Notes under the pieces: model-generated
Told to the model about the DNA's origin: nothing
What the model saw: the letters and a program-made list of their open reading frames with translations, nothing else
Databases searched by the model: none
Program-made: the position numbers and the translations under genes
Assembly (NCBI GenBank): GCA_017608025.1
Contig: JAFCGM010000002.1
Span: forward strand, 6,250-70,249
DNA length: 64,000 nucleotides
Direction: 5' to 3'
Source: Candidatus Pacearchaeota archaeon
Lineage (GTDB): Archaea; Nanobdellota; Nanobdellia; UBA10117; JABICX01
Shown here: positions 5,049 to 56,364 of the stretch, one piece after another
How positions within the stretch are numbered: the stretch's first letter is position 1
How the letters are laid out: the number at the start of each line of letters is the position of its first letter

Positions 5049-5100
5049 GGAAACTTTTAGAAAAAGTTTCATCAAAAAGAAACTTCTTCATTAAAGAGTA

Positions 5101-12514: not shown

Positions 12515-12690
12515 TATCTTTTCAAAAAAGCTCCGCAAAATTCTCGCTTTGCTCGAAATTGAGAAAGATTAGTCTCGGTGCATGATTTTTTTGAGAGCAG
12601 TTTACTTGTCATGGAGCTTTTCAAAAAAGCTCCGCAAAATTCTCGCTTTGCTCGAAATTGAGAAAGATTAGTCTCGGTGCATGATTAAGC
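12515..12690. repeat. Two tandem ~97-bp units, each a family-B hairpin element plus a copy of the last 20-31 bp of secY
   Basis: ...gagcttttcaaaaaagctccgcaaaattctcgctttgctcgaaattgagaaag + attagtctcggtgcatgatttttttgagagcag. The genuine secY 3' end is at 12780-12812. Confidence 0.8.
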
Positions 12691-12779
12691 TTTTTTTAGA
12701 AAAAAGCTTGCAAAAAACAAAAAAATAGTTTTTCTTTGGGAAACTTACACTTTCTTTTTTCTAAAAAGAAAGGGGAGAG

Positions 12780-14171
12780 TTAGTCTCGGTGCATGATTTT
12801 TTTGAGAGCAGGATACATGTCAAATGCATGGTATTTTGCAATTTCCTCATAAAGCTTGTAAATAATCATAACTGTAAGTAAAATTCCTGTTCCACGACTC
12901 AATGCTCCGGAAATGTCTGCTAATGCTGCAAGGAAACCGACAAGCGCTCCACCCATTACAGTTAAAGCAGGAATGTATCTGTTGAGAATTGATTCAAGAA
13001 CGCGAGGGTCTCTCCTAAATCCTGGGATTTGCAATCCAGATGATAGAATTTGCTTTGCCTGAGCATCTGCGCCCATATTGGATGTCTTTACCCAAAGTAT
13101 TGAGAAGATAATTGCGCCAACAACCATAATTGAAATGTAAACCACTGTTTGCAGAATTATTTCTCCTGTTGCTGTGCCTGAAACAATTGAACGAATTATA
13201 TCTGGAGAATGAACCCATTTTACAATTCCAGAAGTTGGTGTTGAACCTTCAAAAGTTCCAAAAATCGGCATTCCTAAATTTTGGAAAAGTCTAGCAAGTA
13301 GCTGTATGTTTGCCAGCAAAGCAGCAATAAGAATAACGGGAATATTAGAACTGTAAATAAATCTTAATGGCCAGCGCATTCCATATCCGCGCACTCGGCC
13401 AAAAGAAAGTGGTATTTCAACTTTCATTGCCTGACCATAAACTGCAATTAAAAACACAACAATTGTCGCTACAATTGCTATTAAAGCAATTAATGCACCA
13501 AGAGAATCTCCCATTCCAAGGGCTTTGAAAATGTAAGGGATTTTTCCTGCAGGAATGTTTGGATTTGTTGGTGATGGCAAAGGATTAAATGCTGCAATGA
13601 AAATCTGTCGAGCAACTCCTCCTGCAATAAACAAGCTTACTCCTGATCCGAAACCCCATTTTTGAACAACCTCATCTAACAAAACTAAAAGGTAACCTCC
13701 AATAATTAGCTGTCCTACTAATCCGAGCTGAAGCCAAAGATACTGACTTGTTCCTGCAAGCTCTGCAGCAGGGGCGAGTCCACCCATAAAAACATAAATA
13801 ACAGCTTCTAAAATTATAAAGCCGATTGTGAAAACTTTTTGCATAGCCTGGAATTTCTTCTTTCCTTCCATAGTTGTAAGGTCTATATTTATTAATCCAG
13901 AACCAGCAAGAAGCTGAAGAATAATAGATGCTGTTACAATAGGACCAATACCTAAAGAAACTATTGAACCAAAACTTGCTCCAAGAATAATTGAAAGAGA
14001 TTCAAATTGAGAAAGAGCGTTTTGTCCAAGGCCTTGAAGAGGGATGTGAAGCAAAACAAAATAGAGTACTAAAACCCCTGCAGTCCATTTAAGCTTTGTT
14101 TTAAAACCAAGCTTTTTTGTCTTTGGGGAAACTATTTCAGGCAAAAATGAGTTTATTAGCTTCCAATTCAT
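12780..14171 (-). CDS. secY: Preprotein translocase subunit SecY
   Basis: 10-TM SecY/Sec61-alpha sequence. Last gene of the spc-like operon. Confidence 0.95.
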   Translation of the reverse strand: MNWKLINSFLPEIVSPKTKKLGFKTKLKWTAGVLVLYFVLLHIPLQGLGQNALSQFESLSIILGASFGSIVSLGIGPIVTASIILQLLAGSGLINIDLTTMEGKKKFQAMQKVFTIGFIILEAVIYVFMGGLAPAAELAGTSQYLWLQLGLVGQLIIGGYLLVLLDEVVQKWGFGSGVSLFIAGGVARQIFIAAFNPLPSPTNPNIPAGKIPYIFKALGMGDSLGALIALIAIVATIVVFLIAVYGQAMKVEIPLSFGRVRGYGMRWPLRFIYSSNIPVILIAALLANIQLLARLFQNLGMPIFGTFEGSTPTSGIVKWVHSPDIIRSIVSGTATGEIILQTVVYISIMVVGAIIFSILWVKTSNMGADAQAKQILSSGLQIPGFRRDPRVLESILNRYIPALTVMGGALVGFLAALADISGALSRGTGILLTVMIIYKLYEEIAKYHAFDMYPALKKIMHRD

Positions 14172-16381: not shown

Positions 16382-16840
16382 TTACTTGTCTTGCTTTTTC
16401 AAAAGATTGTGCTGCCTTATATAAAGATTAAGGTGCTTCTTGCTTCTGAAAAATCCTCCTTTTATTTTCAAATAAAGTTCTCTGTAAGTATCTTTCTCAA
16501 GCTGGTCTTTATTTTTCAGGTTTTTTAAAACTTTTCTTTGACTTCTAACTTTGTTTATCCATTTTTCTTTTGGCGGGGTTCTTGCGCCTCTTTTCCCTTT
16601 CTTGCTTGCAATTCCTCTTTGCCTTCCTTTCTTTTTAGCAAGTGCTGTTGCTCTTGCCCTGTGCCTTGATGTCCCTTTTTTAGGAACTACTGTAATAATC
16701 TGTTCTTTTATTAAAGAGATTATATCACTTTTTGTTATTGCCTGCTTTACTTGCTCTCTTCCTTCTGGAGAAATCTTTACTCGGTTTTTACTTGTGTTTG
16801 CAACTTGAGAAGCAAGTTTCTTTTGGAGTTTTAGTTTCAT
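16382..16840 (-). CDS. rpl19e: Ribosomal protein L19e (eL19)
   Basis: MKLKLQKKLAS...TSRHRAR signature. Confidence 0.9.
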   Translation of the reverse strand: MKLKLQKKLASQVANTSKNRVKISPEGREQVKQAITKSDIISLIKEQIITVVPKKGTSRHRARATALAKKKGRQRGIASKKGKRGARTPPKEKWINKVRSQRKVLKNLKNKDQLEKDTYRELYLKIKGGFFRSKKHLNLYIRQHNLLKKQDK

Positions 16841-17619
16841 TTCTTATTATTCTCCTTTTTGCTATCTTGTGTTTTTGGTTTGTTTTTTGTTTCAGGCTTT
16901 TTTGATTCTGATTCTTTAGTTTGTTTGTTTTCTTTGTTAGGGGCGGTTTCTTTTGCTACAGTCCTTCTGCTGAAGGGACCCACAGCAGTGCTATCTTCGC
17001 CTGGCTCGATATCACTTTTATTTTCTTTGTTAGGGGCGGTTTCTTTTGCTGCTTTTTTTATTTTGGACAAAATCTCCTGCTTTTTCTTTTCATCAATTTT
17101 TTTCTTCTTTTTAATATCTGCAACTTCCTTGTCTTTTTTCTTCAGCTCTTCTTGTCTCTTTTTTTTCTTTTCTGCTTTTTCTTTTTTCTGCTTCTTTCTT
17201 TTTTCATAAGACTCTTTTATTTTCCTTATTTCAGAGTCAAGGTTTCTTATGTTTGAAAATGATATTTTTTTGCTTTTTGCTTTTTCGAGAATTTCAAGGC
17301 GTTTCTTGCTTCCTATTTTTGAAGACAAAATTGCGAAATTTTTCTCTGGATTGAAGTTTTTTAAATCATTGTGATTTTCAACTCTAAAAGGAGTTTTTCC
17401 TTCTTCATTTGCATGCCTTAGAATTGAAATTGTTTTGAATCCAATTGAAACCATCTTTGGTTTTCCTCGTCTTCTAAGCCTTAATTTTGACTGAACTCCG
17501 CGAGGCTTTCTCCACTTTGTTCCAAGCCGTTTTCTCCTGTGAGATTCCTGCCTTTTGAATTCTGGCATTTTCTTTTTTATTTTTTTCTTCTGCTTGGAAA
17601 GTTCTTTTAATGATTTCAT
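16837..17619 (-). CDS. rpl32e: Ribosomal protein L32e (eL32) with ~140-aa K/E-rich C-terminal tail carrying an in-frame repeat-element insertion
   Basis: eL32 core (RRKRLGTKWRKPRG...) followed by a low-complexity tail. Tail contains ...EDSTAVGPFSRRT... flanked by an exact 30-bp duplication. Confidence 0.85.
   Translation of the reverse strand: MKSLKELSKQKKKIKKKMPEFKRQESHRRKRLGTKWRKPRGVQSKLRLRRRGKPKMVSIGFKTISILRHANEEGKTPFRVENHNDLKNFNPEKNFAILSSKIGSKKRLEILEKAKSKKISFSNIRNLDSEIRKIKESYEKRKKQKKEKAEKKKKRQEELKKKDKEVADIKKKKKIDEKKKQEILSKIKKAAKETAPNKENKSDIEPGEDSTAVGPFSRRTVAKETAPNKENKQTKESESKKPETKNKPKTQDSKKENNKK
16958..17020 (-). repeat. Family-A short element (63 bp), in frame inside the eL32 tail
   Basis: gtccttCTGCTGaagggacccaCAGCAGtgctatcttcgcctggctcgatatcac, flanked by exact 30-bp direct repeats (16928-16957 / 17021-17050). 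Confidence 0.85.
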
Positions 17620-18149
17620 TGTATTTTCCTCTTATTCTTTTCAATCATATATATTCCATCCTGGAATATTCTTCTATCTTTTTTGCTCAGTCGAGTAAGA
17701 CTTTCAATTTTTGAAGCAAAATTTCCTGCTTTTTCAATTTCATGAGATTTAACTGTAATTATGTCTTTTTGGATTTCAATATTTATTCCTTGAGGAATAG
17801 TTATTTTTCTGATGTTTTTTGAGCCAATAAAATTTGAAACAGATAACTCATTTCCTTGAACTTTTACACTCATTGGAAAATGGCTTGAGCATACTTTAAG
17901 TTTGTATTCAAATTCCTCTTCAACACCCTTGAGCATGTTTTTTATATGTGAAGCAAATGTTCCAATAATTGCTTTGTTTTTTGCTGTTTTTTCAATAGGA
18001 AGTATTTTAATTTTGTTTTCCTGTTTTTTAATATGAATCCTTCGAATAGGATACGTCTTTTCAAGTGTTATTTTATCATTAGAAACAATTATTCTATTGC
18101 CTTCTATAGAAATGTTCTTGTCTTGCGGAATCTCTACTTCATCAATCAT
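17616..18149 (-). CDS. rpl6: Ribosomal protein L6 (uL6)
   Basis: Two-domain uL6 sequence. Confidence 0.9.
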   Translation of the reverse strand: MIDEVEIPQDKNISIEGNRIIVSNDKITLEKTYPIRRIHIKKQENKIKILPIEKTAKNKAIIGTFASHIKNMLKGVEEEFEYKLKVCSSHFPMSVKVQGNELSVSNFIGSKNIRKITIPQGINIEIQKDIITVKSHEIEKAGNFASKIESLTRLSKKDRRIFQDGIYMIEKNKRKIQ

Positions 18150-18150
18150 T

Positions 18151-18543
18151 TTAGTATACGTATGCTATAAGAACGCCTCCTGAATTTTCATCTTTTGCTT
18201 GAAAATGTGTTAAAAGACCTTTTGGAGTTGAAACAATAAGTCTTCCAAAATTAACTGCTGGTAGATATCTTGTCTCAAACTTCTCAAAATCATCAACACT
18301 AACTGAGAATCTTGGCTTTATGACTCCAATATTATTTATAGCATGGGACAATTCTATTTTCAAAACTCCGCCACGTGAATCTTTGTTAAACTTATAGTTT
18401 GAAATATATTTTTCCTTTTTGAGAATTTCGCAAATTTTTATAAGCAATTTTGAAGCTGGAGCTACTTCTATGTTCTTTTTTCCTGCTTTTTCAGCATTCT
18501 TTATTTTTGAAAGCGCGTTTGCAATTAAATCGTTTGATGACAT
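18151..18543 (-). CDS. rps8: Ribosomal protein S8 (uS8)
   Basis: MSSNDLIANALSKIKNAE... conserved uS8 sequence. Confidence 0.9.
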   Translation of the reverse strand: MSSNDLIANALSKIKNAEKAGKKNIEVAPASKLLIKICEILKKEKYISNYKFNKDSRGGVLKIELSHAINNIGVIKPRFSVSVDDFEKFETRYLPAVNFGRLIVSTPKGLLTHFQAKDENSGGVLIAYVY

Positions 18544-18546
18544 TTT

Positions 18547-18765
18547 TTACCTCAATTTTTTAAATCCTAATTCCTTTGCAACTTCTCTGAAACATCTTCT
18601 ACAAATGTTCAAATTGTATTTGCTTAAGTGACCTCTTTTTCCTCCGCACATTCTACATTTAGAAAGTGCTTGACCAAATTTTCGATTTTTAGGAGAGTTA
18701 TTTCTAAGAAACCTTTGTTTTTTCGTCTTTCCTGGAATTATTTTGTCTATGCCTATTTTTTTCAT
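18547..18765 (-). CDS. rps14: Ribosomal protein S14 (uS14, Zn-binding type)
   Basis: CRMCGGKRGHLSKYNLNICRRCFRE zinc motif. Confidence 0.8.
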   Translation of the reverse strand: MKKIGIDKIIPGKTKKQRFLRNNSPKNRKFGQALSKCRMCGGKRGHLSKYNLNICRRCFREVAKELGFKKLR

Positions 18766-19274
18766 TTAACTTCAACTCCCAACTCTTTTTTAGCAAAAGA
18801 TATTGAATCTTCTTTTAATATTTTATGCTTTTTAGAAATTTTTGATTTTATTTTTCTCTTTTTTATTCTAAATCCAGGTCTCTCAAGAGTAACGCAAACA
18901 TCTAGTCCTTTCATTCCAATGTCAACATCATACTTGAATCCTGGTATATCTATATATTCTGAAACTCCAAATGCAAAACCATTTTCATCAAAGCAGGACT
19001 CTGGAAGAGTGTTTTCCCTTGCTTGAAGGAGCTTCTTTAATACTTCTTCTGCTTCTTTTCCTCGCAAAGTAAGTTTTGCTCCAATAGGCATTCCTGGTCG
19101 TATATTAAAAGTTGGAACTCTTTTCTTAGCAAGGCATTGAATAGGTTTTTTGCTTGAAAACTTTGAAAGCAATTTTATTGCTTTTTTGCAGTTCTTTTCA
19201 TCATTGCCAGTTCCCATATTTAGAACTACTTTTTCAATTCTTATTTTGCGCATAGGGTTTTCTTTTTCTTCCAT
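18762..19274 (-). CDS. rpl5: Ribosomal protein L5 (uL5)
   Basis: uL5 sequence. Confidence 0.9.
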   Translation of the reverse strand: MEEKENPMRKIRIEKVVLNMGTGNDEKNCKKAIKLLSKFSSKKPIQCLAKKRVPTFNIRPGMPIGAKLTLRGKEAEEVLKKLLQARENTLPESCFDENGFAFGVSEYIDIPGFKYDVDIGMKGLDVCVTLERPGFRIKKRKIKSKISKKHKILKEDSISFAKKELGVEVK

Positions 19275-19275
19275 T

Positions 19276-19992
19276 TTAATTCAACTTTATTGCTGGCTTG
19301 TCTTTTCCAACAACAATAACATTTTTCAAATCAGCTTCAGATAAATTTCCTTTTTCATCTTTTGCTATGGCTATTTTTTGCTTTTTCAATATTCCTTTTT
19401 CAGTGATTTCTTCTAGTTTGGCAGTGCTACCTACTTTTTTTCCACCAAAAAAATACAGCAAGCTTCCTTTTTTAAGAGGAAGGGTTTCTTGCTCTTTTCT
19501 TTTTTCTGAATCATAAACAACTACGTCGCCTGTTTTGTAGTTTCCTTTGCTTACTAAAATGTTCCATCCATTCATGAAATTAAGCTGAATTTTTCCTTTT
19601 TTTATCTTTGACTTGTTTTCAATTCTAAGCAAAAGTATTTTTGCTTCTTTTTCTGGAATTTCTATGAACTTGAATTTTCGATTTTTTCCAATAACAACTC
19701 TGTAGTGCTTATTTATTTTTGGAAAAGAAATTACATCAAAAAGCCCTACTGGGAAATTTATTTCTTTTATTGAACGATTGTTAACAATAACTTCTTTATT
19801 GTAAATCAAATATTTAGCTCGTTTTCTTGAATCTGAAATTTTTAGGATTTCTGTTAAAATAACTGAAAGAGGCATTGAAGTTAATATGTTATGTGTTCCA
19901 GCAATAGGTTTTGCTATCCATTTTATTCCTTTCCTTTTTATTGGCCATGCTTTTGGTGCATTAAGCCTTGATAGATGTTGTTTCTTACTCAT
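19276..19992 (-). CDS. rps4e: Ribosomal protein S4e (eS4)
   Basis: MSKKQHLSRLNAPKAWPI... eS4 N-terminus. Confidence 0.9.
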   Translation of the reverse strand: MSKKQHLSRLNAPKAWPIKRKGIKWIAKPIAGTHNILTSMPLSVILTEILKISDSRKRAKYLIYNKEVIVNNRSIKEINFPVGLFDVISFPKINKHYRVVIGKNRKFKFIEIPEKEAKILLLRIENKSKIKKGKIQLNFMNGWNILVSKGNYKTGDVVVYDSEKRKEQETLPLKKGSLLYFFGGKKVGSTAKLEEITEKGILKKQKIAIAKDEKGNLSEADLKNVIVVGKDKPAIKLN

Positions 19993-20515
19993 TGTTTTTT
20001 CCTCCTTTTGAATCAGTTTTTACTGGCTTTATTGTTTTTGTTGATGATTTTTCAATTGCTTGCTTTCTTGTCCTTCCAGCGAAGGGACCCACGCTGGCGC
20101 TATCTTCGCCTTTGGCTCGATAGCTCTTAGATTGTGATGATTTTTCAATTGCTTGCTTTCTCTTCTTGTCAGATAAATCAATATCAATTATTTGAACATT
20201 TGAAGGAGATATTGGGTATTTAATTACTCGGCCTTCTTCTTTTTTGAATTCTGCTTTTCTGACAAAGATTTTGCTCTTTTTTAGAGACACTTTTTCAACT
20301 TCTCCAATCAATCCTTTGAATTGGCCTCTAAGGATTTTTACCTTGTCTTTAACTCGAATTGGAATGTTTCTTGTATTGTATTTTTTTCGCAAATCTTTTG
20401 AAAGTAAAGCAGACATAAACTTTCTTTTTACATGAAGCGGAGAATTGAATCGATATTTCCTCTGCTTTCTAGGCTGTTTGCTTGACTTCCATTTTTTAGA
20501 CCAAAGAGTTTTCAT
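19985..20515 (-). CDS. rpl24: Ribosomal protein L24 (uL24, KOW) with C-terminal tail carrying an in-frame repeat-element insertion
   Basis: KOW motif KVKILRGQFKG. Tail contains ...EDSASVGPFAGRT... flanked by an exact 27-bp duplication. Start taken at MKTLW. Confidence 0.85.
   Translation of the reverse strand: MKTLWSKKWKSSKQPRKQRKYRFNSPLHVKRKFMSALLSKDLRKKYNTRNIPIRVKDKVKILRGQFKGLIGEVEKVSLKKSKIFVRKAEFKKEEGRVIKYPISPSNVQIIDIDLSDKKRKQAIEKSSQSKSYRAKGEDSASVGPFAGRTRKQAIEKSSTKTIKPVKTDSKGGKNNE
20069..20134 (-). repeat. Family-A short element (66 bp), in frame inside the uL24 tail
   Basis: gtccttCCAGCGaagggacccaCGCTGGcgctatcttcgcctttggctcgatagc, flanked by exact 27-bp direct repeats (20042-20068 / 20135-20161). 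Confidence 0.85.
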
Positions 20516-20520
20516 TTTGA

Positions 20521-20925
20521 TTATAACATTATGCTTGCTGTTTTTGCCACCTGAGACCATCGATATGCAACTTCTTTTGCAATCGGACCTTTAATTAAAG
20601 TACCTTTTGGTGTTCCCAAACGAACATCACGCAAAACAATTCCTGCATTGTCCTCAAATTTAACTTTTGTTCCGTCAGGTCGGGAATATTCCTTTTTTTG
20701 CCGGACAATAACGACAGGAACAACTTGGTGCACCATGTCTGGCTTTCCTGCCTTAACAGCAACAGTAACCAAGTCAGAAACGCCTGCAGAAGCAAGCTTT
20801 CTTGTTCTTGTCTTATAACCGCGAACAGAGATTATCTGTCCAAGTCTTGCTCCTGAATTATCTGCTATGTTAATTACAGTTCCCAAAGGCATGCTTTTTG
20901 ATATTCTTGTTTTTACTGATTTCAT
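20521..20925 (-). CDS. rpl14: Ribosomal protein L14 (uL14)
   Basis: MKSVKTRISKSMPLGTVINIADNSGAR... uL14 sequence. Confidence 0.9.
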   Translation of the reverse strand: MKSVKTRISKSMPLGTVINIADNSGARLGQIISVRGYKTRTRKLASAGVSDLVTVAVKAGKPDMVHQVVPVVIVRQKKEYSRPDGTKVKFEDNAGIVLRDVRLGTPKGTLIKGPIAKEVAYRWSQVAKTASIML

Positions 20926-20936
20926 TTTTTGTCCTC

Positions 20937-21090
20937 TGTCCTTCTGCTGAAGGGACCCACAGCGGTCGTGTAAAGCTTTGCTTCACACAACGGTTTAACT
21001 CTAGTGACTGTCCTTCTGCTGAAGCCACTCATAGCAGTGCTATCTTCAGAAACAAAGTTTCCTTGATAACAGGTATTTAGCATTATAGGA
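20937..21090 (-). repeat. Two tandem family-A elements (A3a 20937-21008, A3b 21009-21090) inserted at the S17 stop / L14 start overlap
   Basis: Flanked by 26-bp direct repeats ttcattttttgtcctctgtccttctg (20921-20946 / 21091-21116) that each contain the ATGA overlap. Confidence 0.8.
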
Positions 21091-21091
21091 T

Positions 21092-21463
21092 TCATTTTTT
21101 GTCCTCTGTCCTTCTGTTTATTGAATCTATTTTTTCATATACAACAAATTTCTTTGTTTTGGAAATTGGCCTGCATTCTGCAATTTTAACTATATCTCCT
21201 TTTTTTGCATTGATATGTTCTGGAAGATGAGCTTTGACTTTTGAGCTTCTTTTTTCATATCTTTCATATTTTGGAATTTTAATGTGCCTTGACCACTTTA
21301 CTGTAACAGTTTTCATCATTTTGTCAGAAACAACTGTTCCTGTAAAGACTCTACCTCTCAGAGGTATGCTTATTTTTGGAGATTTATTATTTTTTTCCAA
21401 TTCATTCACCTTTTGCTTGGTTTTCTCGTGTTTTTTCATTTTTTTATTTTGAGCCGATCCCAT
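21092..21463 (-). CDS. rps17: Ribosomal protein S17 (uS17) with Lys-rich N-terminal extension
   Basis: uS17 OB-fold core. C-terminus ...NRRTEDKK. Confidence 0.85.
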
Positions 21464-21708
21464 GGTCTTTTTTCAATTTCTTCTCCATTTATTTCGACTT
21501 TTTCTTTTGATGGAAGAGTTATTTTAAGAGTTATGTTTTTTTTAAACAGTCTCTTAACTTTGTTTTTTGTTTTTATTTGAAGCGTATGATATGTTTCATT
21601 TACAATCTTGCCTTTTAATCCAAGATTGCACTTGTTTTTTGCCGCTGAAATTTCAGCATTAAGGCCAATTAGTTCGTGCCTTTGAATGTTTTGCTTTGTT
21701 ATTGGCAT
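21436..21708 (-). CDS. rnp1: RNase P protein component 1 (Rpp29/Pop4-like)
   Basis: Small Sm-like basic protein. Sits at the conserved archaeal position between SUI1/L29 and S17. Confidence 0.6.
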
Positions 21709-21709
21709 G

Positions 21710-22015
21710 TTATTTTATTTCAATGCTGTCTTCATTATATCCTAGCTGTATCAAGACTTCCTTTACACGATGCTTTTGGTTTCCTTGAAGTTCAATCACC
21801 TTGTCTTTTATGGTTCCACCGCAAGCAAGTTTTTGCTTTAGTTTTTTTGCAAGATCCTTTGCTTCTTTTTCTTCTGAAACTCCTTCAACAAGAGTTACAG
21901 GCTTTCCATATCTTCTTTGTGTAAGACGAATAGTTATTGTTGCTTGCTCTTTTGCAATTGTTTTGCACATGCAAAGATCTTTTGGAAGTCCGCAGACCGG
22001 ACATATGTCAGTCAT
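21710..22015 (-). CDS. Translation initiation factor SUI1 (aSUI1/eIF1)
   Basis: SUI1 domain ...TLVEGV...KLACGGT... with an N-terminal CPVCG...CMC zinc knuckle. Confidence 0.85.
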   Translation of the reverse strand: MTDICPVCGLPKDLCMCKTIAKEQATITIRLTQRRYGKPVTLVEGVSEEKEAKDLAKKLKQKLACGGTIKDKVIELQGNQKHRVKEVLIQLGYNEDSIEIK

Positions 22016-22221
22016 TATTTGTTTTTTACCTCCGTATTTTTTATGAACATTAACCTAGCAATAGTTTTTCGTATCTCACGAATTCTCCCGGCATTTTCCG
22101 GAGTTGCTCCAGCACTTATTTGGGAATTCAGCTTAAGTACTTCTTTTCGCAATTCCTCTATTTTTGAATCAATTTCCTTTGAACTCATTTTTCTTGCATC
22201 TTTTGCTCTGATTATTGCCAT
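22015..22221 (-). CDS. rpl29: Ribosomal protein L29 (uL29)
   Basis: MAIIRAKDARKMSSKEIDSKIEELRKEVLKL. The 14 upstream codons in the ORF track are the repeat element, not protein. Confidence 0.85.
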   Translation of the reverse strand: MAIIRAKDARKMSSKEIDSKIEELRKEVLKLNSQISAGATPENAGRIREIRKTIARLMFIKNTEVKNK

Positions 22222-22303
22222 TGTCCTTCTGCTGAAGGGACCCACAGCAGCTCTACCGAGCAAAGCTCGATAGCGCGAATGGATTCCTTAGTTTTTTTCC
22301 TCC
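22222..22303 (-). repeat. Family-A full-length element (A4) occupying the whole S3-L29 junction
   Basis: Minus-sense: GGAGGaaaaaaaCTAAGGAAtccatTCGCGCTATCgagctttgctcggtagagctgctGTGGGTCCCTTCagcaGAAGGACA then ATG. Its first 16 nt encode the S3 C-terminus and stop. Confidence 0.85.
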
Positions 22304-23124
22304 TTTTTAGATTTGGGTTTTGATTTTTTGGTTTTTTCTTCAGATTTCTTTTCTTCTTTTTTTGTTTCTGATATTTTTGCTGGTTTTGATTTTTCTTTCT
22401 CAACTTCCTTAGATTTTGCTGATTTTGCTGATTTTGCTGATTTTTCAGCTTGATTTTCAGCTTCTTTAGCAGAGATTTCCTCTTTTGAAATGAGGTTTCC
22501 TTTTTCATCTACCTCTTCAACATGAATTGTTTTGAACTTGACTTTGTCTGGAAGCGGAGTATTTGGAAGCATTATCTTAACTTTAATTCCAACTGCTCCG
22601 GACTTTGTATTTGCAACCATTGTTGCTGAATCAACAAGGTCTTGAGCTACATGTCCACATTTCTTCATATATCCATTATAAAATCTCCAAACCCGGGATC
22701 TCTGGCTTGGAACTTTTCCAGATATTTTTATTTCGCAACCCATTGCTCCTGCTTTCATTACATTTGAAAGGCTGTTATATGAAATAGGTTTAAATCTTCG
22801 GATTCCGAAATTTTCAAGTTTGAATAATATGTTTCTTGCAATTACTTTTGCATTTAAGTTAGGTTCCTGAATTTCACGAACTTCTATTTGAGGATTTTCA
22901 AGCTTAAAAGTATTTTTTAGTATTTTTGTTAGGTCTTTAATTGTTTCTCCGCCCCTTCCAATTATTAATCCAGGTTTTACTGCTTCAATAATTACTTTTT
23001 CTCCAAGAGGTGTTTTTTCAAAATAAATTCCTCCAATTCCTGCTCTGGAACTTATTCTGCTTTCTATTTTGTTCTTTATATACAATTCATTAATCTTGTT
23101 TTTAATAAATTCCCGCTCTATCAT
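22288..23124 (-). CDS. rps3: Ribosomal protein S3 (uS3) with K/E-rich C-terminal tail
   Basis: KH domain GRGGETIKDL. The last 5 codons and the stop lie inside repeat element A4. Confidence 0.9.
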   Translation of the reverse strand: MIEREFIKNKINELYIKNKIESRISSRAGIGGIYFEKTPLGEKVIIEAVKPGLIIGRGGETIKDLTKILKNTFKLENPQIEVREIQEPNLNAKVIARNILFKLENFGIRRFKPISYNSLSNVMKAGAMGCEIKISGKVPSQRSRVWRFYNGYMKKCGHVAQDLVDSATMVANTKSGAVGIKVKIMLPNTPLPDKVKFKTIHVEEVDEKGNLISKEEISAKEAENQAEKSAKSAKSAKSKEVEKEKSKPAKISETKKEEKKSEEKTKKSKPKSKKEEKN

Positions 23125-23606
23125 TTCTTAACCTCTTTTTTATTGGTTTTTTCTTCTTTCTTTTTTCCTGTTTTTGACTCAATCACAACTTCAAAATGTG
23201 CTATTTTCCTTTTTCTGCCTCTGTGCCTTCCATAGTGCCAAGAGGTTGGTCCTTTTTGCGCAGAAGCGTGAATTATAATAAGGTCTTTTTCATCAAATCC
23301 TTTTTCAAGTGCATTTGAAACTGCAGCATACACTACTTTTTTTATTTCATGCACTGTTTTGACAGGATATCTTCCTGTTGCTATTTTTCCTCTTCGATGA
23401 GGTATGCTTTTGTAAAACTTTTTGTAAGGCACAGGCATTTTCTTTTCAAGAATCCAGTCCAGCTCTCTTTTAACTCTCTTTATTTCTTTTCCTTTCAAAA
23501 AATTAGCAACTTCAATAGCCTTTTTTCTTGATATTGGCAAGTTAAGGCCTACTGCTCTAGCCATTCTTTCTTTGTTGAATTCCTGAAATACATAATTGTA
23601 TGCCAT
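23121..23606 (-). CDS. rpl22: Ribosomal protein L22 (uL22)
   Basis: uL22 sequence. Confidence 0.9.
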   Translation of the reverse strand: MAYNYVFQEFNKERMARAVGLNLPISRKKAIEVANFLKGKEIKRVKRELDWILEKKMPVPYKKFYKSIPHRRGKIATGRYPVKTVHEIKKVVYAAVSNALEKGFDEKDLIIIHASAQKGPTSWHYGRHRGRKRKIAHFEVVIESKTGKKKEEKTNKKEVKK

Positions 23607-23684
23607 TGTCTTTAAAGCAAAGGACTTGCGCGGGCTCTACCGAGCAAACTCGATAGCGCGAAAGTTCCTTAGTTTTTTGCCTCC
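23607..23684 (-). repeat. Family-A variant element (A5) between S19 and L22, abutting the L22 ATG
   Basis: GGAGGcaaaaaaCTAAGGAACTTTCGCGCTATCgagtttgctcggtagagcccgcgcaagtcctttgctttaaagaca then ATG. Confidence 0.75.
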
Positions 23685-23703
23685 TTTTTAAGATATTTCA
23701 TTT

Positions 23704-24099
23704 TTACTTTACACTTAATGCTTTGGAACCTTTTGTTGCTCCGATTCCTGGAGCTTTATGAGATACTTCTTTTCTTGTTCTTACAAATTCACCGATTCTG
23801 TGACCGGTTTTTTCTGCGTCAAGCTCCACTGTTAAGAACTCTTTTCCATTGTAAACAAGAAGCTTAACTCCAAACAAATCTGGAGTTATTATTAAATCTC
23901 GAACATGAGTTTTGATTGGCTTTGGATTACTTTGCTCTTTTCTTTTCTTGATTTTTTCAATTAATTTTTTCTGCTCAGGAGTATAGCCTCTTTTCAAAGA
24001 TCGCCTTGCTCTTGAATCAAGAAGCTGCATTATTTCCTGACGGGTTAACTTAACAAGTTCCTCTTCTGTTTTTCCTTTGAATTTGAATACTTTTGCCAT
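23704..24099 (-). CDS. rps19: Ribosomal protein S19 (uS19)
   Basis: ...GKEFLTVELDAEKTGHRIGEF... uS19 signature. Confidence 0.9.
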   Translation of the reverse strand: MAKVFKFKGKTEEELVKLTRQEIMQLLDSRARRSLKRGYTPEQKKLIEKIKKRKEQSNPKPIKTHVRDLIITPDLFGVKLLVYNGKEFLTVELDAEKTGHRIGEFVRTRKEVSHKAPGIGATKGSKALSVK

Positions 24100-24180
24100 T
24101 GTCCTTCTAACAAGTTCTTTGTTTGCTAGCCTCCATTATTATTTTTCTATTTATCATTTTTTTACTTGCCGCGTCCTGCT

Positions 24181-24240
24181 CCCTTTTCTTTAGAAAAGAA
24201 AAGGTAAGTTTCCAAAAGAAACTTTTTTGAGCATTGTTAT
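24181..24240. repeat. Family-E palindromic element inserted between L2 and S19 with ~30-bp target duplication
   Basis: cccttttctttagaaaagaaaaggtaagtttccaaaagaaac, flanked by tatcatttttttacttgccgcgtcctg at 24151-24177 and 24243-24269. Confidence 0.75.
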
Positions 24241-24251
24241 CTATCATTTTT

Positions 24252-24965
24252 TTACTTGCCGCGTCCTGATTTTTTAGCTGAAAGCATTCCAACTTTCTGT
24301 CCTGGTGAACGTCCTTTTCTTCTTACAGTTGTTGATGTAGGTCTGTGCCTTCTGTGCGTTCCACCGTGTGGGTGGTCAACTGCGTTCATTGCAACTCCTT
24401 TTACTTTTGAAACAAGCTTGTTTTTTGCTTTTCTTTTGTGGTATGAGTTTCCAGCCTTTATTAAAGGCTTGTTTTTAACTCCAACTCCTGCAACTACTCC
24501 AAGAGATGCATAGCATTCTGGATTTAGTTTTATTTGCCTTTTTGAAGGCATCTTAATTACAATATTTTTCTTTTCTTTTGCAACCAATATTCCAGAAGCT
24601 CCTGCTGCTCTCAAAAGCTTTCCATTTTGTCCTGGAACTTTTTCTATGTTGAAAACTCTTGCTCCGATAGGAATGTCTTTCAAAGCAATTGCATTTCCAA
24701 CTGAAGAGTCTTTTCCTCCATAAAAAACTGTTTGTCCAACTTTGATTCCCATTGGTGCTGGAAGCAAACACATTTGATCATCTTCATATTTTACTATCAT
24801 TAGTGGAGCTGAGTGTCCTACAGAGTTTACAATATCAATAACCTCCCCCTGAAGTATTTCTTTGGACTTAATTGGGTAACGAATTTCTCCAAAATAACGG
24901 TGGCTTGGAGACTTATATCTAGGTGAGCCTTTTCCTCTTCTTTGCGTAATAAGCCTTTTTCCCAT
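24252..24965 (-). CDS. rpl2: Ribosomal protein L2 (uL2)
   Basis: uL2 sequence with a GGTHRRHRP-type C-terminus. Start taken at MGKRLITQRRGKG. The 11 upstream codons in the ORF track are the repeat element. Confidence 0.9.
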   Translation of the reverse strand: MGKRLITQRRGKGSPRYKSPSHRYFGEIRYPIKSKEILQGEVIDIVNSVGHSAPLMIVKYEDDQMCLLPAPMGIKVGQTVFYGGKDSSVGNAIALKDIPIGARVFNIEKVPGQNGKLLRAAGASGILVAKEKKNIVIKMPSKRQIKLNPECYASLGVVAGVGVKNKPLIKAGNSYHKRKAKNKLVSKVKGVAMNAVDHPHGGTHRRHRPTSTTVRRKGRSPGQKVGMLSAKKSGRGK

Positions 24966-25074
24966 GTCCTTCTCGCGAAGGGACCCACTCAGCCGCAAAA
25001 TCGGCTGGCGCTTTCATCAGGCAGATGTTGGTCTGATGCCTGATAGCGCGAAAGTTCCTTAGTTTTTTGCCTCC
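24966..25074 (-). repeat. Family-A long element (A6, 109 bp) between L23 and L2, abutting the L2 ATG
   Basis: GGAGGcaaaaaaCTAAGGAACTTTCGCGCTATCaggcatcagaccaacatctgcctgatgaaagcgccagccgATTTTGcggctgagtGGGTCCCTTCgcgaGAAGGAC then ATG. Confidence 0.85.
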
Positions 25075-25099
25075 ATTATTTTTATCATTATTCTTCTCC

Positions 25100-25363
25100 T
25101 TATACTAATCCTAATTTTGAAGTTATGTCTGCTGCAGGTGTTTCTGCGCTTAATTTAATATATGCTTTTTTCTTGCCATTCATTGTTTTTTGTGTTCTAA
25201 CATTAAGGACTTTTATGTCAAAAGCCTTTTCTGCAGCCCATTTTATTGACCTTTTTGTTGCATTCTTGTCTACAATGAATATGAGGCAGTTTTCTGCTTC
25301 CATTTCCCTAACTGCTTTTTCTGTGCTTAATGGATATTTGATTATTAAATAAGGGTCATTCAT
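25100..25363 (-). CDS. rpl23: Ribosomal protein L23 (uL23)
   Basis: uL23 sequence. Confidence 0.9.
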   Translation of the reverse strand: MNDPYLIIKYPLSTEKAVREMEAENCLIFIVDKNATKRSIKWAAEKAFDIKVLNVRTQKTMNGKKKAYIKLSAETPAADITSKLGLV

Positions 25364-29052: not shown

Positions 29053-29585
29053 AGTTAAAGAAAACTGCAATATCTTAATAAAACTTGCCAATTCACTACC
29101 GAAATTCTTTAATCTATGTGTTTCTATAAAATTAACATGAAAAACAAACATAGATTAATTGCTTTCTTTTTAGTACTTGTTTTTGTAGTAAGCTTCTTGT
29201 TTTTTGGAAGGATTTTCAGCATAATAGATTCTCTTTCTGATTTAACAGGCGCGGAAATTCTAAAGACTCCAGAAGAAAAGTCAGAAGAATACTCATCTGT
29301 CTGCGAGCAGAAAGACTTTTCAAAAAATTATCGCGACTGTATTTACTGGGAACAGGAAGGGGAAAAACAAGATTCTCTTTCAAAGCTTTCAGACGAAGCA
29401 GTGGAATCTTTTTGCAAAGAGCTATTTAGAATTTACAAAACTTGCGAATAGAAACATTTTTAACTGATATTTTGGGTTTAACTCATATCAGATTTGCTCT
29501 GAGCTAACTTTCGACTGTTGAACAGCAGCGGGATGTCTTTGCCAGCGCTTTTCTGAAAAGAGATATGCATCATGATCTAATGCTC

Positions 29586-29678
29586 CTTCTCGTGAAGGGA
29601 GTTACATGCGGCTGCAAAATCAGCCGGCACTTTCATCAGGCAACAAAGTACGATGCCTGATTGTGATTCACGAACACA
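29586..29678 (-). repeat. Family-A structured repeat element (copy A7), directly 5' of tRNA-Gly
   Basis: tccttctcgtgaaggga...gcggctg-CAAAAT-cagccg...ttcacgaa. Flanked by a duplicated ~20-bp tRNA-Gly 5' segment (29565-29585 / 29680-29700). Confidence 0.7.
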
Positions 29679-29681
29679 TAT

Positions 29682-29753
29682 GCACCGATGATCTAATGGC
29701 TATGATTCGAGCCTTCCAAGCTCGCTGTCTGGGTTCGATTCCCAGTCGGTGCA
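29682..29753 (+). tRNA. tRNA-Gly(TCC)
   Basis: Acceptor GCACCGA/TCGGTGC+A. Anticodon stem-loop CGAGC-CTTCCAA-GCTCG. T-arm CTGGG-TTCGATT-CCCAG. T6 terminator follows. Confidence 0.85.
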
Positions 29754-32096: not shown

Positions 32097-32206
32097 TGTA
32101 TTATAAAAATATATATAATGGTTTATATAATTTGTTGAAAAAATTTCTAAAAGTTTCATCAAAAATAAAAGGAAATATTTATAAATCGCATATTTTACTT
32201 AGATTT

Positions 32207-32370: not shown

Positions 32371-32459
32371 AACTTTTGGAAAAAGTTTCATCAAAAACAG
32401 AATCATATTTTTACATTATCTCTTTTCCATATTGATTTTAGTTAAGATTCTTTAGTGCA

Positions 32460-32540
32460 GTCCTTTTAGCTAAGAGACCCACGCTGGCGACAAACATTGG
32501 TTATGAAAAGTCGCATAAGCTCTTAAATTATTTCTTTTTC
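32460..32540 (-). repeat. Degenerate family-A element flanked by diverged ~30-bp direct repeats
   Basis: gtccttttagctaagagacccacgctggcg... between attgattttagttaagattctttagtgca and atgttaattttaactaagactctttggtgca. Confidence 0.5.
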
Positions 32541-32645
32541 ATGTTAATTTTAACTAAGACTCTTTGGTGCATTTTTTGAATAAATGCTTTTTTGTCATCC
32601 ATTTCAGAAGCTTCATAATAAAACAAAAATAAAAATTAAATTTGT

Positions 32646-46155: not shown

Positions 46156-46860
46156 TCAAAGCTGGTTAAAGCATCTCTTGAAGTTCTTTTCGATCTGTTC
46201 CTCAACATCTTCTGGGGAGAACTTCTTTATTCTGGCAATCTCCCTAATTACTTTTTTTATGCTTGTTTTTGGGTTGTCTGTTATATACGGGAAATCTGTT
46301 TCTGTTAAGATTCGCGAAAGAGGAACTATTTCAACTAGCTTCTTAACTTCTGGATACTTGAAGATGAAAGTGTTGATTGAAAAGTAGAATTTAGACTTTA
46401 TGTCTTCAATTAATTCTGGGTTTCCTGTGTATGAATGAATTACTGCCTTTCCATTATAATTTTTAAGCATTTTTGCAACTACTCCTTCTGCCTGCCTGCA
46501 GTGTATAATCACTGGCTTGTTTATCTGCTTTGCAAGCTTCAGAATTTCGCTGAAGTATTTTTTGTGCACAGGCCTTTCTGTTTTTGATGAATATTTATAG
46601 TCAAGCCCTACTTCGCCGACTGCGACTATTTTGTTTTTTTTATTTTTTATTTCTTCAAACTCGGCATAAATTTCCTTTTCAAGATATTCGGAAAATCTTG
46701 TTGGATGGAAACCGATTGCTGCAAAAACATTTTCATATTTTTCAGAAAATTTTAGAACTTCTTTATTTGACTCTGGGTCAAGACCGTTTACTATTACAGG
46801 AATGTTCTTGTATTTTTTAAAATCTTTTTCTTTTGCATGTGAATGTGCGTCGTATAGCAT
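46156..46860 (-). CDS. tatD: TatD-family deoxyribonuclease/hydrolase
   Basis: MLYDAHSHA..., HCRQAEG, VIHSYTG and TETDFPYI TatD motifs. The upstream extension in the ORF track is repeat-derived. Confidence 0.8.
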   Translation of the reverse strand: MLYDAHSHAKEKDFKKYKNIPVIVNGLDPESNKEVLKFSEKYENVFAAIGFHPTRFSEYLEKEIYAEFEEIKNKKNKIVAVGEVGLDYKYSSKTERPVHKKYFSEILKLAKQINKPVIIHCRQAEGVVAKMLKNYNGKAVIHSYTGNPELIEDIKSKFYFSINTFIFKYPEVKKLVEIVPLSRILTETDFPYITDNPKTSIKKVIREIARIKKFSPEDVEEQIEKNFKRCFNQL

Positions 46861-46914
46861 TACACAATAACCTCGATTATTACTCTTATTAATGAGTAAT
46901 GTATGTACCAGTCC

Positions 46915-46980
46915 TTCTAGCCAAGGGACACAAGCTGGTCGTGTACAGCAGAGCTGCACACAACTTAAACCTTAATCTCA
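46915..46980 (-). repeat. Family-A short element (66 bp) flanked by 39-bp direct repeats
   Basis: ttctagccaagggacacaagctggtcgtgtacagcagagctgcacacaac... between attattactcttRttaatgagtaatgtatgtaccagtcc copies at 46876 and 46981. Confidence 0.7.
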
Positions 46981-47019
46981 ATTATTACTCTTGTTAATGA
47001 GTAATGTATGTACCAGTCC

Positions 47020-47078
47020 GTTTCGCCCGGACTGTGCGAAAGCGCATTGCTTCGCAATGCACTATACTTTTATTTCAG
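47020..47078. repeat. Family-C structured element (copy 1), nested next to the family-A copy
   Basis: gtccg-tttcgcc-cggac hairpin plus gcgcattgc-ttc-gcaatgcac hairpin. 96 bp between flanking repeat copies. Confidence 0.65.
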
Positions 47079-47832
47079 TTATTACTCTTGTTAATGAATG
47101 ATGTACATACCATTCAAACTCATTTATTACATTATATTTTGATAGGTCTAATTTAAGGGTTTTGGGTCGAATGAAAATTATCTTGTGATTTTTCTTCACG
47201 ATTTTATGTGCTTCTTCTAAAAAAGAGTTGTAAAGAGTTTTTATTTTTTTGCCGGCGAGAGTCGAGCTTTTTCCATATGGAGGATCGCAAACAATTGCTT
47301 CAATTTTATCAGAGAACAATGAAGATATGTTTGTAGCATCTCCAATAATCACCTGCCAATCTTTTCCTTCCCTTATGTTATATTTATCAGAATAAAATCT
47401 AAGATTGGTTTTGGAAGCTTGTGCAGCTTTCCATTTAATATCTATTCCTATTCCTTTAATTCCAAGAATAGCACTTTCCAAAATAATAGAACCTGTTCCG
47501 CAAAAGGGATCTACAATTTGATTCTTAGCTTCAGACAAGTTAATTAAAAGACGGGCAAGCTTTGGTTTTAGTGCTGTTGGATGAAATGCTGGCTTTTTCT
47601 GAGGTTCTCGGTCCAGAAACTGACCAGATTTTCTTTCCCATATGCAATAATCATTTAAGTAAGCTTTTTTTATTCCTGCGCTTTTTACACACAAATCAAT
47701 TATTTTCTTAGAAGGAATTTTTTTGCTGAAAAATACATAATTTTCTTTTAATTTAGAATTAACATTAAAAAGGATATCAACCTCCCGCTTAAATGCGGAC
47801 AGGTTTTCTCCAGAAATTCTCAGCTTAATCAT
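47062..47832 (-). CDS. tRNA (guanine-N2)-methyltransferase, Trm11/Trm-G10-like
   Basis: DPFCGTGS (motif I) and DPPYG (motif IV). Confidence 0.6.
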   Translation of the reverse strand: MIKLRISGENLSAFKREVDILFNVNSKLKENYVFFSKKIPSKKIIDLCVKSAGIKKAYLNDYCIWERKSGQFLDREPQKKPAFHPTALKPKLARLLINLSEAKNQIVDPFCGTGSIILESAILGIKGIGIDIKWKAAQASKTNLRFYSDKYNIREGKDWQVIIGDATNISSLFSDKIEAIVCDPPYGKSSTLAGKKIKTLYNSFLEEAHKIVKKNHKIIFIRPKTLKLDLSKYNVINEFEWYVHHSLTRVITEIKV

Positions 47833-54278: not shown

Positions 54279-54395
54279 CTGTCCTTCTGCTGAAGCCATC
54301 CACAGAGCCCTTTTGGAAAAAGCGCTCGCGGAAAACGGCAAATGCGGTCGTGTAAAGCTTTGCTTCACACACGGTTTAATTCTGGTTTTAGTCCT
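54279..54395 (-). repeat. Family-A element (copy A9) filling the thrS-PLD intergenic region
   Basis: ctgtccttctgctgaagccatccacag...gcggtcgtgtaaagctttgcttcacacacgg... The gtgtaaagc/gcttcacac hairpin is shared with A3a. Confidence 0.7.
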
Positions 54396-54412
54396 TATTC
54401 TAAAGATATTGC

Positions 54413-56119: not shown

Positions 56120-56193
56120 TGTCCTTCTAGTGACGGGACCCACGCTGGCTTTACTGAACAAGCTTGATAGCGCGAAAGTTCCTTATGTCCTCC
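56120..56193 (-). repeat. Family-A element (copy A8), forming the thrS 5' leader
   Basis: Minus-sense: GGAGGacataaggaacTTTCGCGCTATCaagcttgttcagtaaagccagcGTGGGTCCCgtcactaGAAGGACA then ATG. A TTTATA box abuts its 5' end at 56194-56200. Confidence 0.75.
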
Positions 56194-56364
56194 TATAAAT
56201 TGTTTAGAAATACGGCTATTTAAATTATTCTCCGTTGCCCTCAATAAAATTAATGGGCGACAAAAGCGCCAGCTGATTTCGCGGCTGTGTGGGGCACTCA
56301 CCGTTAATAGCCATAAAATTCTTTATTGAAGAAGATTTAAAAGGTTTGTTGTAAAAAGCAGATT

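Follow-up and report, generated by a model that had tools for sequence, protein, structure and literature searches.

In the stretch of 64,000 nucleotides analyzed here (the window, part of contig JAFCGM010000002.1 of a Candidatus Pacearchaeota archaeon), we observed that a 63-nt hairpin element has inserted in the DNA for the C-terminal extension of ribosomal protein eL32, duplicating 30 bp of its target. The element is one of a family of related copies in this window, here called family A. We conclude that it is most probably a lineage-specific, non-autonomous mobile hairpin that inserted with the 30-bp duplication and persists, translated and unspliced, as tolerated selfish DNA.

An in-frame hairpin element in the C-terminal tail of eL32

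The eL32 gene and the parts of the insertion are the following.

16837..17619, minus strand: eL32 gene, an open reading frame (ORF) of 260 amino acids, with Pfam Ribosomal_L32e (PF01655) among the homologues
17021..17050, minus strand: gene-proximal copy of the duplicated target, an exact 30-nt repeat encoding AKETAPNKENK (residues 191-201)
16958..17020, plus strand: family-A element, 63 nt, antisense to eL32 (covariance model 45 bits, E=2.8e-7)
16928..16957, minus strand: gene-distal copy of the duplicated target, an exact 30-nt repeat encoding AKETAPNKENK (residues 222-232)

The repeat unit TTTTCTTTGTTAGGGGCGGTTTCTTTTGCT was exact at 16928-16957 and 17021-17050, at a spacing of 93 nt, and grew to 34 nt if one mismatch was allowed (16924/17017). 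A first-pass annotation of this DNA had described a 30-bp repeat around a 63-bp core, and both its coordinates and the exactness of the repeat were confirmed. It had also predicted that eL32 reads AKETAPNKENK-SDIEPGEDSTAVGPFSRRTV-AKETAPNKENK, and this matched our translation exactly, with the middle segment at residues 202-221. In the plus sense, the element reads ACA-GTCCTTC-TGCTG-AAGGGACCCA-CAGCAG, followed by the hairpin TGCTATC...GATATCA.

The element and one copy of the duplication add up to 93 nt, or 31 codons, that contain no stop. As had been claimed, the eL32 frame is thus left intact, and so is the ATGA in which the eL32 stop overlaps the start of L19e. The protein is laid out as a globular L32e domain, a long K/E-rich helix and a disordered tail. 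When we modeled eL32 using AlphaFold2, the helix spanned residues 127-193, and the per-residue confidence (pLDDT) was <50 for residues 195-260, which cover the insert residues 202-221. The insert would therefore be translated as 31 extra residues in a predicted disordered tail that follows a long helix, where they should be harmless.

The K/E-rich extension itself, of ~65 residues (residues ~127-193; window 17040-17240), is found in eL32 and its DPANN-like orthologues. It was modeled confidently as a single long helix, with pLDDT >90 in part, and the shortest eL32 homologues from the search (143-160 aa) are without it.

The core belongs to a family of structured copies

We searched the window for further copies of the core with motif and covariance-model searches. 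The 22-nt centre of the eL32 core had three matches at ≤3 mismatches, against none expected, and the covariance model yielded 11 strong copies, all on the plus strand. These results establish the membership of the core in family A, which had been proposed from the letters of the window.

16961, 20070, 20938, 21010, 22223, 24966, 29583, 32460, 46911, 54281 and 56121, plus strand: strong family-A copies (covariance model)
23609 and 24101: degenerate family-A remnants
994, minus strand: marginal family-A match

All copies share a 5' module that reads GTCCTTC-N5-AAGGGACCCA-N6 in the plus sense. The arms of its helix S1 (GTCCTTC/GAAGGGAC) and the loop AAGGGACCCA are almost invariant. The helix S2 (N5/N6) covaries, for example CTGCTG/CAGCAG in one copy and CCAGCG/CGCTGG in another, and three of its pairs are altered on both sides; its covariation score was 0.618, as compared to 0.286 in shuffles, and 0 of 500 shuffles scored as high. 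We also observed ten wobble cells (about five events), and every one of them is U-G on the plus strand, which indicates that the strand antisense to the ribosomal-protein genes forms the better structure. In the mRNA sense, these ten cells would become A-C mismatches. Downstream of the 5' module, the copies continue with one of three hairpin types and then a ragged end. The family-A core has a G+C content of 51-56%, in a genome of 33% G+C. Besides the copies in eL32 and in L24 (described below), the other nine are intergenic.

No Rfam 15 family matched at the element copies at the gathering threshold, nor over 16800-25200 at E<=10. Readings of the 5' module as hepatitis delta virus-like, hammerhead or tRNA-minihelix structures were rejected, as the order of helices does not fit. 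When GTDB species genomes, JGI metagenomes and IMG/VR were scanned for exact motifs, the only matches were chance singletons in unrelated high-GC bacteria, and scans with other modules found none in viral contigs, phage records or plasmid records; the range of these negatives is limited, since the window's own contig is absent from the scanned genome, metagenome and virus collections.

A second in-frame copy in L24

A second copy was found within a coding region, in the C-terminal tail of L24.

20042..20161, element on the plus strand: insertion within the L24 C-terminal tail (ORF 19985-20560, minus strand), with a 66-nt element at 20069-20134

On either side of it stands an exact 27-nt repeat (20042-20068 and 20135-20161), with the same 93-nt spacing as in eL32. 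The L24 insert encodes SKSYRAKGEDSASVGPFAGRT, the counterpart of SDIEPGEDSTAVGPFSRRTV in eL32, and both are read in the frame that gives GEDSxxVGPFxxRT. Of the element's three sense frames, one contains stops; the two ORF copies share one of the two that are open. The L24 stop overlaps the S4e start within ATGAGTAA. In both eL32 and L24, the stop thus overlaps the start of the following gene, so that the reading frame must be kept. A length that is a multiple of three, the lack of stops, the fixed frame and the gene overlaps would matter only if ribosomes read through the inserts. Peptides such as SDIEPGEDSTAVGPFSR or GEDSASVGPFAGR would be diagnostic of such read-through.

Identical sequences 93 nt apart around a segment that forms hairpins could also serve as the take-off and landing sites of programmed translational bypassing, as occurs in T4 gene 60 and the mitochondrial byp elements. 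The ribosome would then leave the message in the first AKETAPNKENK and land on the second, skipping the element, and the peptide SDIEPGEDSTAVGPFSRR would be left out of eL32. However, the insert has no stop or frame disruption that needs a hop, the same frame is kept in both ORF copies, and the structure in the mRNA sense is weak (-16 kcal/mol, z = -0.87). We therefore consider bypassing to be extremely unlikely.

Relatives carry empty sites and compact junctions

The closest eL32 orthologue (P0002, 231 aa, 61-71% identity) reads ...SKIKQSAKET-QKSES..., with a single copy of the target and no element, and the insert was absent from the more distant orthologues examined as well. L24 of the relative L024 (145 aa) likewise has a single ...ERKKALEKS... 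segment and no insert. When we deleted the 93 nt in silico, the tails of eL32 and L24 became collinear with those of the orthologues, in agreement with the earlier proposal that removal of the element and one repeat copy restores a simpler ancestral tail.

The same proposal had named one alternative, a tail that is an ordinary tandem low-complexity repeat. An expansion of the lysine-rich tail without any foreign element would draw on the K/E-rich, repetitive character of the tail and on the exact tandem duplications elsewhere in the genome. It is refuted by the family membership of the core, which is homologous to ten other copies at unrelated loci; moreover, the 63-nt core is G+C-rich (51% in a 33% G+C genome), is absent from the orthologues, and is arranged with its repeats as A-B-A, not as A-B-A-B. 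We give this reading hardly any credence.

The syntenic 19-kb contig of L024 has zero family-A copies. Its junctions are compact (S17 and L14 share ATGA, L23 and L2 are 1 nt apart, and S3 and L29 share TAATG), and the inserts of the window occupy exactly those junctions that are tight in this relative. Short-range repeats numbered one (of low complexity) in this contig as compared to eight in the equivalent part of the window. In the closest relative (locus L001, GCA_964558255.1, 2.7 kb), S3 follows eL32 instead of L19e, with an ATGA overlap; this order is due either to an operon rearrangement or to a chimeric assembly.

Long target duplications across the window

Exact direct repeats of >=15 nt at a spacing of 30-260 nt numbered 18 in the window, as compared to 0-1 in ten Markov-shuffled controls. 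Besides eL32 and L24, at least ten structures have the form target-insert-target. They involve several hairpin families, each insert being made of one to three short hairpins of a few recurring kinds. The duplication lengths in the window, with eL32 and L24 included, are 17, 19, 21, 22, 26, 27, 27, 30, 32 and 53 nt. The eL32 repeat had been noted to look like a target-site duplication, and this is supported here, as small inserts in this genome generally have long duplications at their flanks. The structures are listed below by the positions of their repeat copies.

4813 / 4928: tRNA-Leu 3' end and downstream; duplication 53 nt, insert 62 nt
12569 / 12668 / 12780: SecY 3' end; duplication 19-32 nt, three copies
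24152 / 24242: L2 3' end; duplication 27 nt, insert 63 nt, different family
28767 / 28888: tRNA-Arg 3' end; duplication 21 nt, insert 100 nt
29563 / 29678: tRNA-Gly leader and 5' end; duplication ~20 nt, diverged; insert ~95 nt
32428 / 32540: downstream of 5S rRNA; duplication 32 nt, insert 80 nt
46889 / 46994 / 47079: upstream of the TatD-like gene; duplication 19-26 nt, inserts 78-79 nt
52317 / 52396 / 52475: A-B-A-B-A array 52317-52496; duplication 22 nt, insert 57 nt, twice

A search for a target-site motif over the duplications gave no clear or fixed motif, and only a weak preference of the duplicated segments to begin with T or TT. We also considered a constant unit size, as a ruler mechanism would give, because the duplication and insert together span 79-121 nt and come to 93 nt twice. 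This was rejected; in our judgement, the similarity of the units follows from similar insert sizes and the in-frame constraint.

Two loci are perfect A-B-A-B-A arrays: 52317-52496, with the 22-nt target three times and the 57-nt element twice, and 12518-12811, with three copies at the SecY 3' end. These arrays suggest either unequal recombination between the long duplications or repeated insertion at the same site, and both look like tandem amplification. With such long direct repeats, an insertion would be precisely reversible, by recombination or slippage, and tandem amplification would be possible too.

The L2/S19 junction (24100-24251) is 152 nt long, as compared to 2 nt in the relative. 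Its insert is of a different hairpin family, contains a 43-nt sequence that is 100% identical at 49799-49841, and has a 27-nt duplication of the L2 stop region.

Copies at gene junctions, start codons and RNA genes

The intergenic copies lie at the following places, all given in the plus sense.

20921..21107: S17/L14 junction; the target TTCATTTTTTGTCCTCT at 20921 and 21091 brackets two family-A copies (20938, 21010)
22222..22290: S3/L29 junction, filled by a long-form copy that abuts the L29 start codon
23607..23703: S19/L22 junction, filled by a degenerate long-form copy that abuts the L22 start codon
24966..25099: L23/L2 junction; a long-form copy abuts the L2 start, with extra hairpins homologous to the tRNA-Arg intron
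29563..29698: tRNA-Gly; variant copy at 29583-~29677, with a diverged ~20-nt duplication of the leader/5' end at 29563-29582 and 29678-29698
32428..32571: downstream of 5S rRNA; copy at 32460-32539, with a diverged 32-nt duplication (26/32 identical)
46860..47124: upstream of the TatD-like gene; a ~20-60-nt target occurs three times in tandem
54279..54412: gap between the threonyl-tRNA synthetase (ThrRS) and PLD-like genes; a family-A copy abuts the PLD-like gene start
56120..56200: ThrRS start; a long-form copy abuts the start codon

At the S17/L14 junction, the duplication is 17 nt long, or 26 nt if the element end is counted. The 17-nt target holds a Shine-Dalgarno motif and ATGA, so that one copy gives the stop of S17 and the other the start of L14; the duplication thereby splits the ancestral ATGA overlap, and both genes are intact. 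Upstream of the TatD-like gene, the target copies are separated by a family-A copy (46911) and by a different hairpin element.

The C-terminus of S17 (21092-21130) reads ...INRRTEDKK*, and its RRT codons CAGAAGGAC equal the end of the element and adjoin the duplicated target. A truncated older insertion could account for this, as could microhomology where the element inserted. Two mini-ORFs, MKYLKKEAKN* after S19 (23640-23703) and MIKIMEAKN* after L23 (25040-25099), have the DNA GGAGGCAAAAAACTAAGGAAC in common, and the S3 C-terminus (...KKEEKN*) resembles their ends; either the GGAGGCAAAAAACTAAGGAAC flank is carried along by the long-form element, or recombination exchanges sequence between the junctions. 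In addition, a ~35-nt repeat, TCYGCGGAAACTTTTRGAAAAAGTTTCATCAAAAA, brackets the 5S rRNA gene and adjoins tRNA-Leu and tRNA-Gly, and may be a promoter or terminator module of stable-RNA genes.

32131-32165, 32363-32397, 5044-5078 and 29773-29807: copies of the ~35-nt repeat TCYGCGGAAACTTTTRGAAAAAGTTTCATCAAAAA

We also examined the start codons that adjoin the element. In six genes (L29, L22, S19, L2, the PLD-like gene and ThrRS), the element end ...GAAGGAC(A) stands directly before ATG, and a Shine-Dalgarno motif is absent between the two. Other genes of the window have GGAGG-like motifs or upstream regions of the leaderless type. GAAGGAC was rejected as a general ribosome-binding site, as it was found only at element-bearing junctions.

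22222-22226, 23605-23612, 24097-24108, 24963-24972, 54276-54287 and 56117-56127: GAAGGAC(A)ATG starts

These starts, together with the near-invariance of the S1 arms and loop AAGGGACCCA while S2 covaries, and the single chromosomal orientation of 11 of 11 strong copies, would fit a domesticated element, in which a strand-specific protein-binding site or a single-stranded DNA or RNA structure acts in gene expression. It might, for example, replace Shine-Dalgarno-led initiation at L2, L22, L29, S19, ThrRS and the PLD-like gene, and the eL32 and L24 copies would be by-products or have a function of their own. However, copies also lie at places implausible for such a role (ORF tails, downstream of 5S rRNA, upstream of a tRNA), the structure favors the strand antisense to the mRNAs, and the relative manages without any copy. 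The abutment of start codons can be explained as well by this being nearly the sole tolerated insertion point in a compact operon. Domestication thus seems unlikely to us.

tRNA introns and the question of mRNA splicing

The first-pass annotation had raised the possibility that bulge-helix-bulge (BHB)-type splicing removes the segment from the mRNA. The organism does splice BHB introns: three intron-containing tRNAs are in the window, along with an RtcB gene at 60150-61604. The tRNA-Arg(CCU) gene (28890-29052, minus strand) has an unusually long canonical BHB intron of 88 nt, composed of two hairpins, CAGCCGCAAAATTGGCTG-GCGC-TTT..CAGGCA...TGCCTG. In the tRNA sense, these hairpins are homologous to the plus strand of the L2 (24990-25040) and tRNA-Gly (29607-29660) copies. 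A second tRNA, at 1027-1160 (minus strand), has an intron of ~61-64 nt; it was missed by ARAGORN and by Rfam at the gathering threshold, and was found by a local permissive scan. The module AATCCCTTTCAAAAAGGGTCTTCCA is common to this intron and to a duplication-flanked insert at 4866-4927. A degenerate family-A module (994-1023) follows the 3' end of the same tRNA. Since hairpins are common to introns and element copies, the modules also reside in tRNA introns or derive from them; the family-A 5' module was absent from both of the introns that share modules.

We scanned for BHB motifs as two 3-nt bulges around a 4-bp helix, with the intron-containing tRNAs of the window as positive controls. 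The tRNA-Arg intron was recovered and had the top G-C pair count in the scan of the whole window. At the 30222-30340 tRNA, there was no correct match on the sense strand and only a match on the opposite strand. For eL32, the scan gave no motif that places splice sites at the insert boundaries. The sole match there was weak, with an outer helix of TGT/ACA and a central GGGT/GCCT that includes two G-U pairs, and it would delete 84 nt from inside the element, leaving the element unexcised. No counterpart of this match was seen by eye in the L24 tail, and matches as weak occur in thousands in the window.

Excision of the element, or of the element and one repeat, from the eL32 mRNA, with RtcB joining the exons, would be in line with the splicing of tRNA introns by this organism, with the kinship of long-form hairpin modules to the 88-nt tRNA-Arg intron, with the module shared by the 1027-1160 tRNA intron and a duplication-flanked insert, and with the one weak match, whose removal of 84 nt would be in frame. 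But that match has an AU-only outer helix and two G-U pairs, misses the element, and is of commonplace quality, and the flanking repeats, being purine-rich, are unable to pair with one another. The two ORF inserts keep the gene in frame, are stop-free and are read in the same frame, which would be needless if they were spliced. The majority of copies lie between genes, every strong copy is antisense to the ribosomal-protein mRNAs, and the structure is better on the plus strand, its ten wobble cells being A-C mismatches in the mRNA sense. With no credible BHB motif that spans the insert, this suggestion of the annotation was not supported, and we regard a BHB-type intron in eL32 as very unlikely. 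Both mRNA splicing and translational hopping are thus unlikely at the eL32 insert.

How the element could move

The 5' boundary of the element, in the plus sense, is precise: only 0-3 nt separate the duplications from GTCCTTC, and TGTCC is the beginning of many copies. The opposite end is variable and ragged. The orientation is uniform, including two copies in plus-strand gene contexts (tRNA-Gly and 5S rRNA). Insertion of the mobile hairpin could proceed by two strand breaks 17-53 bp apart, joining of the element between them, and filling in of the gaps, which would yield long and variable duplications. The mobilizing enzyme would be supplied in trans, the nearest precedent being an IS1634/IS1549-like or IS1202-like transposase, whose own element would be expected to match the family-A end TGTCCTTC. 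Repair-mediated capture or an RNA/cDNA route would be alternatives. A single orientation regardless of transcription, together with the strand-specific wobble, favors a DNA-strand or replication-linked process; the ragged end, the GGAGGCAAAAAAC flank at the L22 and L2 copies and the tRNA-intron kinship keep the cDNA route alive.

Several observations weigh against a tolerated mobile hairpin. No terminal inverted repeats were seen by eye at the duplication-defined ends, where no dedicated inverted-repeat test was run. In eL32, the ends are 5'-ACAGTCCTTCTGC and ...GATATCACTTTTA-3', and the internal hairpins are the only inverted repeats. No transposase, integrase or reverse transcriptase was found with Pfam among the ten larger non-ribosomal ORFs of the window, which include ThrRS, a PLD-like nuclease, TatD, a methyltransferase, an intein-containing ABC ATPase, an amidohydrolase, a MiaB-like enzyme, RtcB and a DHH protein; one of the ten had no Pfam match. 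At five or six copies that directly adjoin a start codon, no long duplication is obvious, so that the mode of insertion may be non-uniform, or some copies may be functional. Family A was not found in the scanned genome, metagenome, viral, phage and plasmid collections, and mobility is therefore deduced from the copies within this genome and from the empty sites of relatives that are distant (61-71% protein identity); none of these sites is polymorphic or near-identical. Translation of the insert, too, is deduced from the frame of the DNA.

An alternative is spread through RNA, in which RNAs of the element, akin to excised tRNA introns, would undergo reverse transcription and enter the DNA at staggered nicks, in a target-primed manner resembling that of short interspersed elements (SINE-like). 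The long, variable duplications (17-53 nt), the one precise and one ragged end without inverted termini, and the modules common to two tRNA introns would agree with it. So would the ~13-nt flank GGAGGCAAAAAAC that is common to the L22 and L2 copies, and the wobble, which favors the plus strand, that is, the tRNA-Arg-intron orientation of the modules in the L2 and tRNA-Gly copies. Against it, no reverse transcriptase was among the ten ORFs checked in the window, and the family-A 5' module is absent from the tRNA introns; a DNA-strand or replication-linked process also fits better with an orientation that is uniform despite local transcription at tRNA-Gly and 5S rRNA. We consider this route improbable.

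A broader possibility, to which we accord a small but appreciable chance, is an undescribed class: mobile hairpin modules of 60-100 nt without inverted termini and related to tRNA introns, with a mechanism that would be new for prokaryotic non-autonomous elements. It would be either a target-primed/cDNA insertion or a replication-strand-specific process making staggered breaks of 17-53 bp. If this were true, such modules would have colonized the ribosomal-protein operon, tRNA genes and tRNA introns, rewritten protein tails (eL32, L24, possibly S17) and replaced the initiation regions of essential genes.

Comparison with known systems

To our knowledge, IS1549/IS1634 and the IS1202 group are the only prokaryotic transposons reported with duplications of this size, and the gain of BHB introns is not known to duplicate target sequence. 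Family A shares with the archaeal BHB or 'transposed' tRNA introns similar sizes and hairpin modules common to two tRNA introns, and differs in that the boundaries of the eL32 insert lack a BHB motif. Mitochondria offer examples of G+C-rich hairpins invading compact, AT-rich genomes, as GC clusters (yeast var1), double-hairpin elements and byp elements, and var1 is itself a ribosomal-protein gene with in-frame GC-cluster insertions. The family-A core, of 51-56% G+C in a 33% G+C genome, may resemble these. The mitochondrial elements are organellar, presumably unrelated in sequence, and have short AT-rich duplications, and some are bypassed by ribosomes.

Like the REP/RAYT and IS200/IS605 (PATE) elements, family A has strand-specific hairpins. 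It has long duplications and no fixed target motif, and it is not of the REP/IS200 type, as such elements leave no duplication.

The remark of the first-pass annotation that 30 bp is far longer than normal target-site duplications was fair, although precedents exist in the IS1202 group and IS1549/IS1634 (PMC10132070, PMC2266710). IS1549/IS1634 produce variable direct repeats of 8-514 bp, which lack a mechanistic model, and archaea carry diverse members of this family (PMC2266710). In the IS1202 group, duplications are 16-28 bp long and the ends are TGT...ACA (PMC10132070). Family A, with duplications of 17-53 nt, resembles both in this respect, and many of its copies begin with 5'-TGT, as in IS1202/Tn7 (PMC10132070). 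However, IS1549/IS1634 and IS1202 are autonomous elements of 1.5-2 kb with terminal inverted repeats and DDE transposases, whereas family A has no such repeats, no ACA-3' at its other end and no transposase in the checked ORFs.

[quoted passage not shown] Family A is small, multicopy and non-coding, and is absent at the relatives' sites, with 11 copies in 64 kb against none in the syntenic contig. In contrast to MITEs, it has no terminal inverted repeats visible by eye, its duplications are longer and more variable than the usual 2-10 bp, its strong copies are all in one orientation, and no parent insertion sequence was identified among the ten window ORFs checked. As both terminal inverted repeats and a short fixed duplication are absent, it is not a classical MITE.

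The family is not the only selfish element of the window, as an ABC-type ATPase gene at 36787-39009 (minus strand) carries an intein with a LAGLIDADG homing endonuclease (Pfam Intein_splicing, LAGLIDADG_3). Family A shows how selfish DNA can invade a compact, apparently DPANN-like archaeal genome at its most conserved operon and leave that operon unbroken, the long duplications keeping stop/start overlaps, tRNA genes and frames intact and adding peptide segments to ribosomal proteins. Such inserts also inflate or confuse gene calls, protein families and ribosomal-protein phylogenies derived from metagenome-assembled genomes.

The closest functional parallel is found in Rickettsia. The Rickettsia palindromic elements (RPEs) are short, palindromic, non-autonomous repeats that occur between genes and in frame in unrelated housekeeping ORFs, where their reading frame is fixed and the host protein gains a conserved peptide; in-frame fusions also arise from ERIC/RU and MITE insertions within genes (PMC10969869). 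Family A, which is read in one frame in eL32 and L24 and also lies between genes, appears by this analogy to be a functional archaeal counterpart of the RPEs. The likeness is one of functional class and not of homology. RPEs are bacterial and ~100-150 bp long, while family A is archaeal, ~60-100 bp long, and has duplications of 17-53 bp. In-frame selfish hairpins are thus already known as a phenomenon. What is new here is that two ribosomal proteins have been hit, that 17-53-bp duplications recur without inverted termini, that modules are shared with tRNA introns, and that the start codons of essential genes are directly abutted by the element. This combination of features is without a worked-out mechanism in the systems compared, and it could mean that these elements transpose in a new way, or that intron mobility is linked to genome-wide repeats in archaea.

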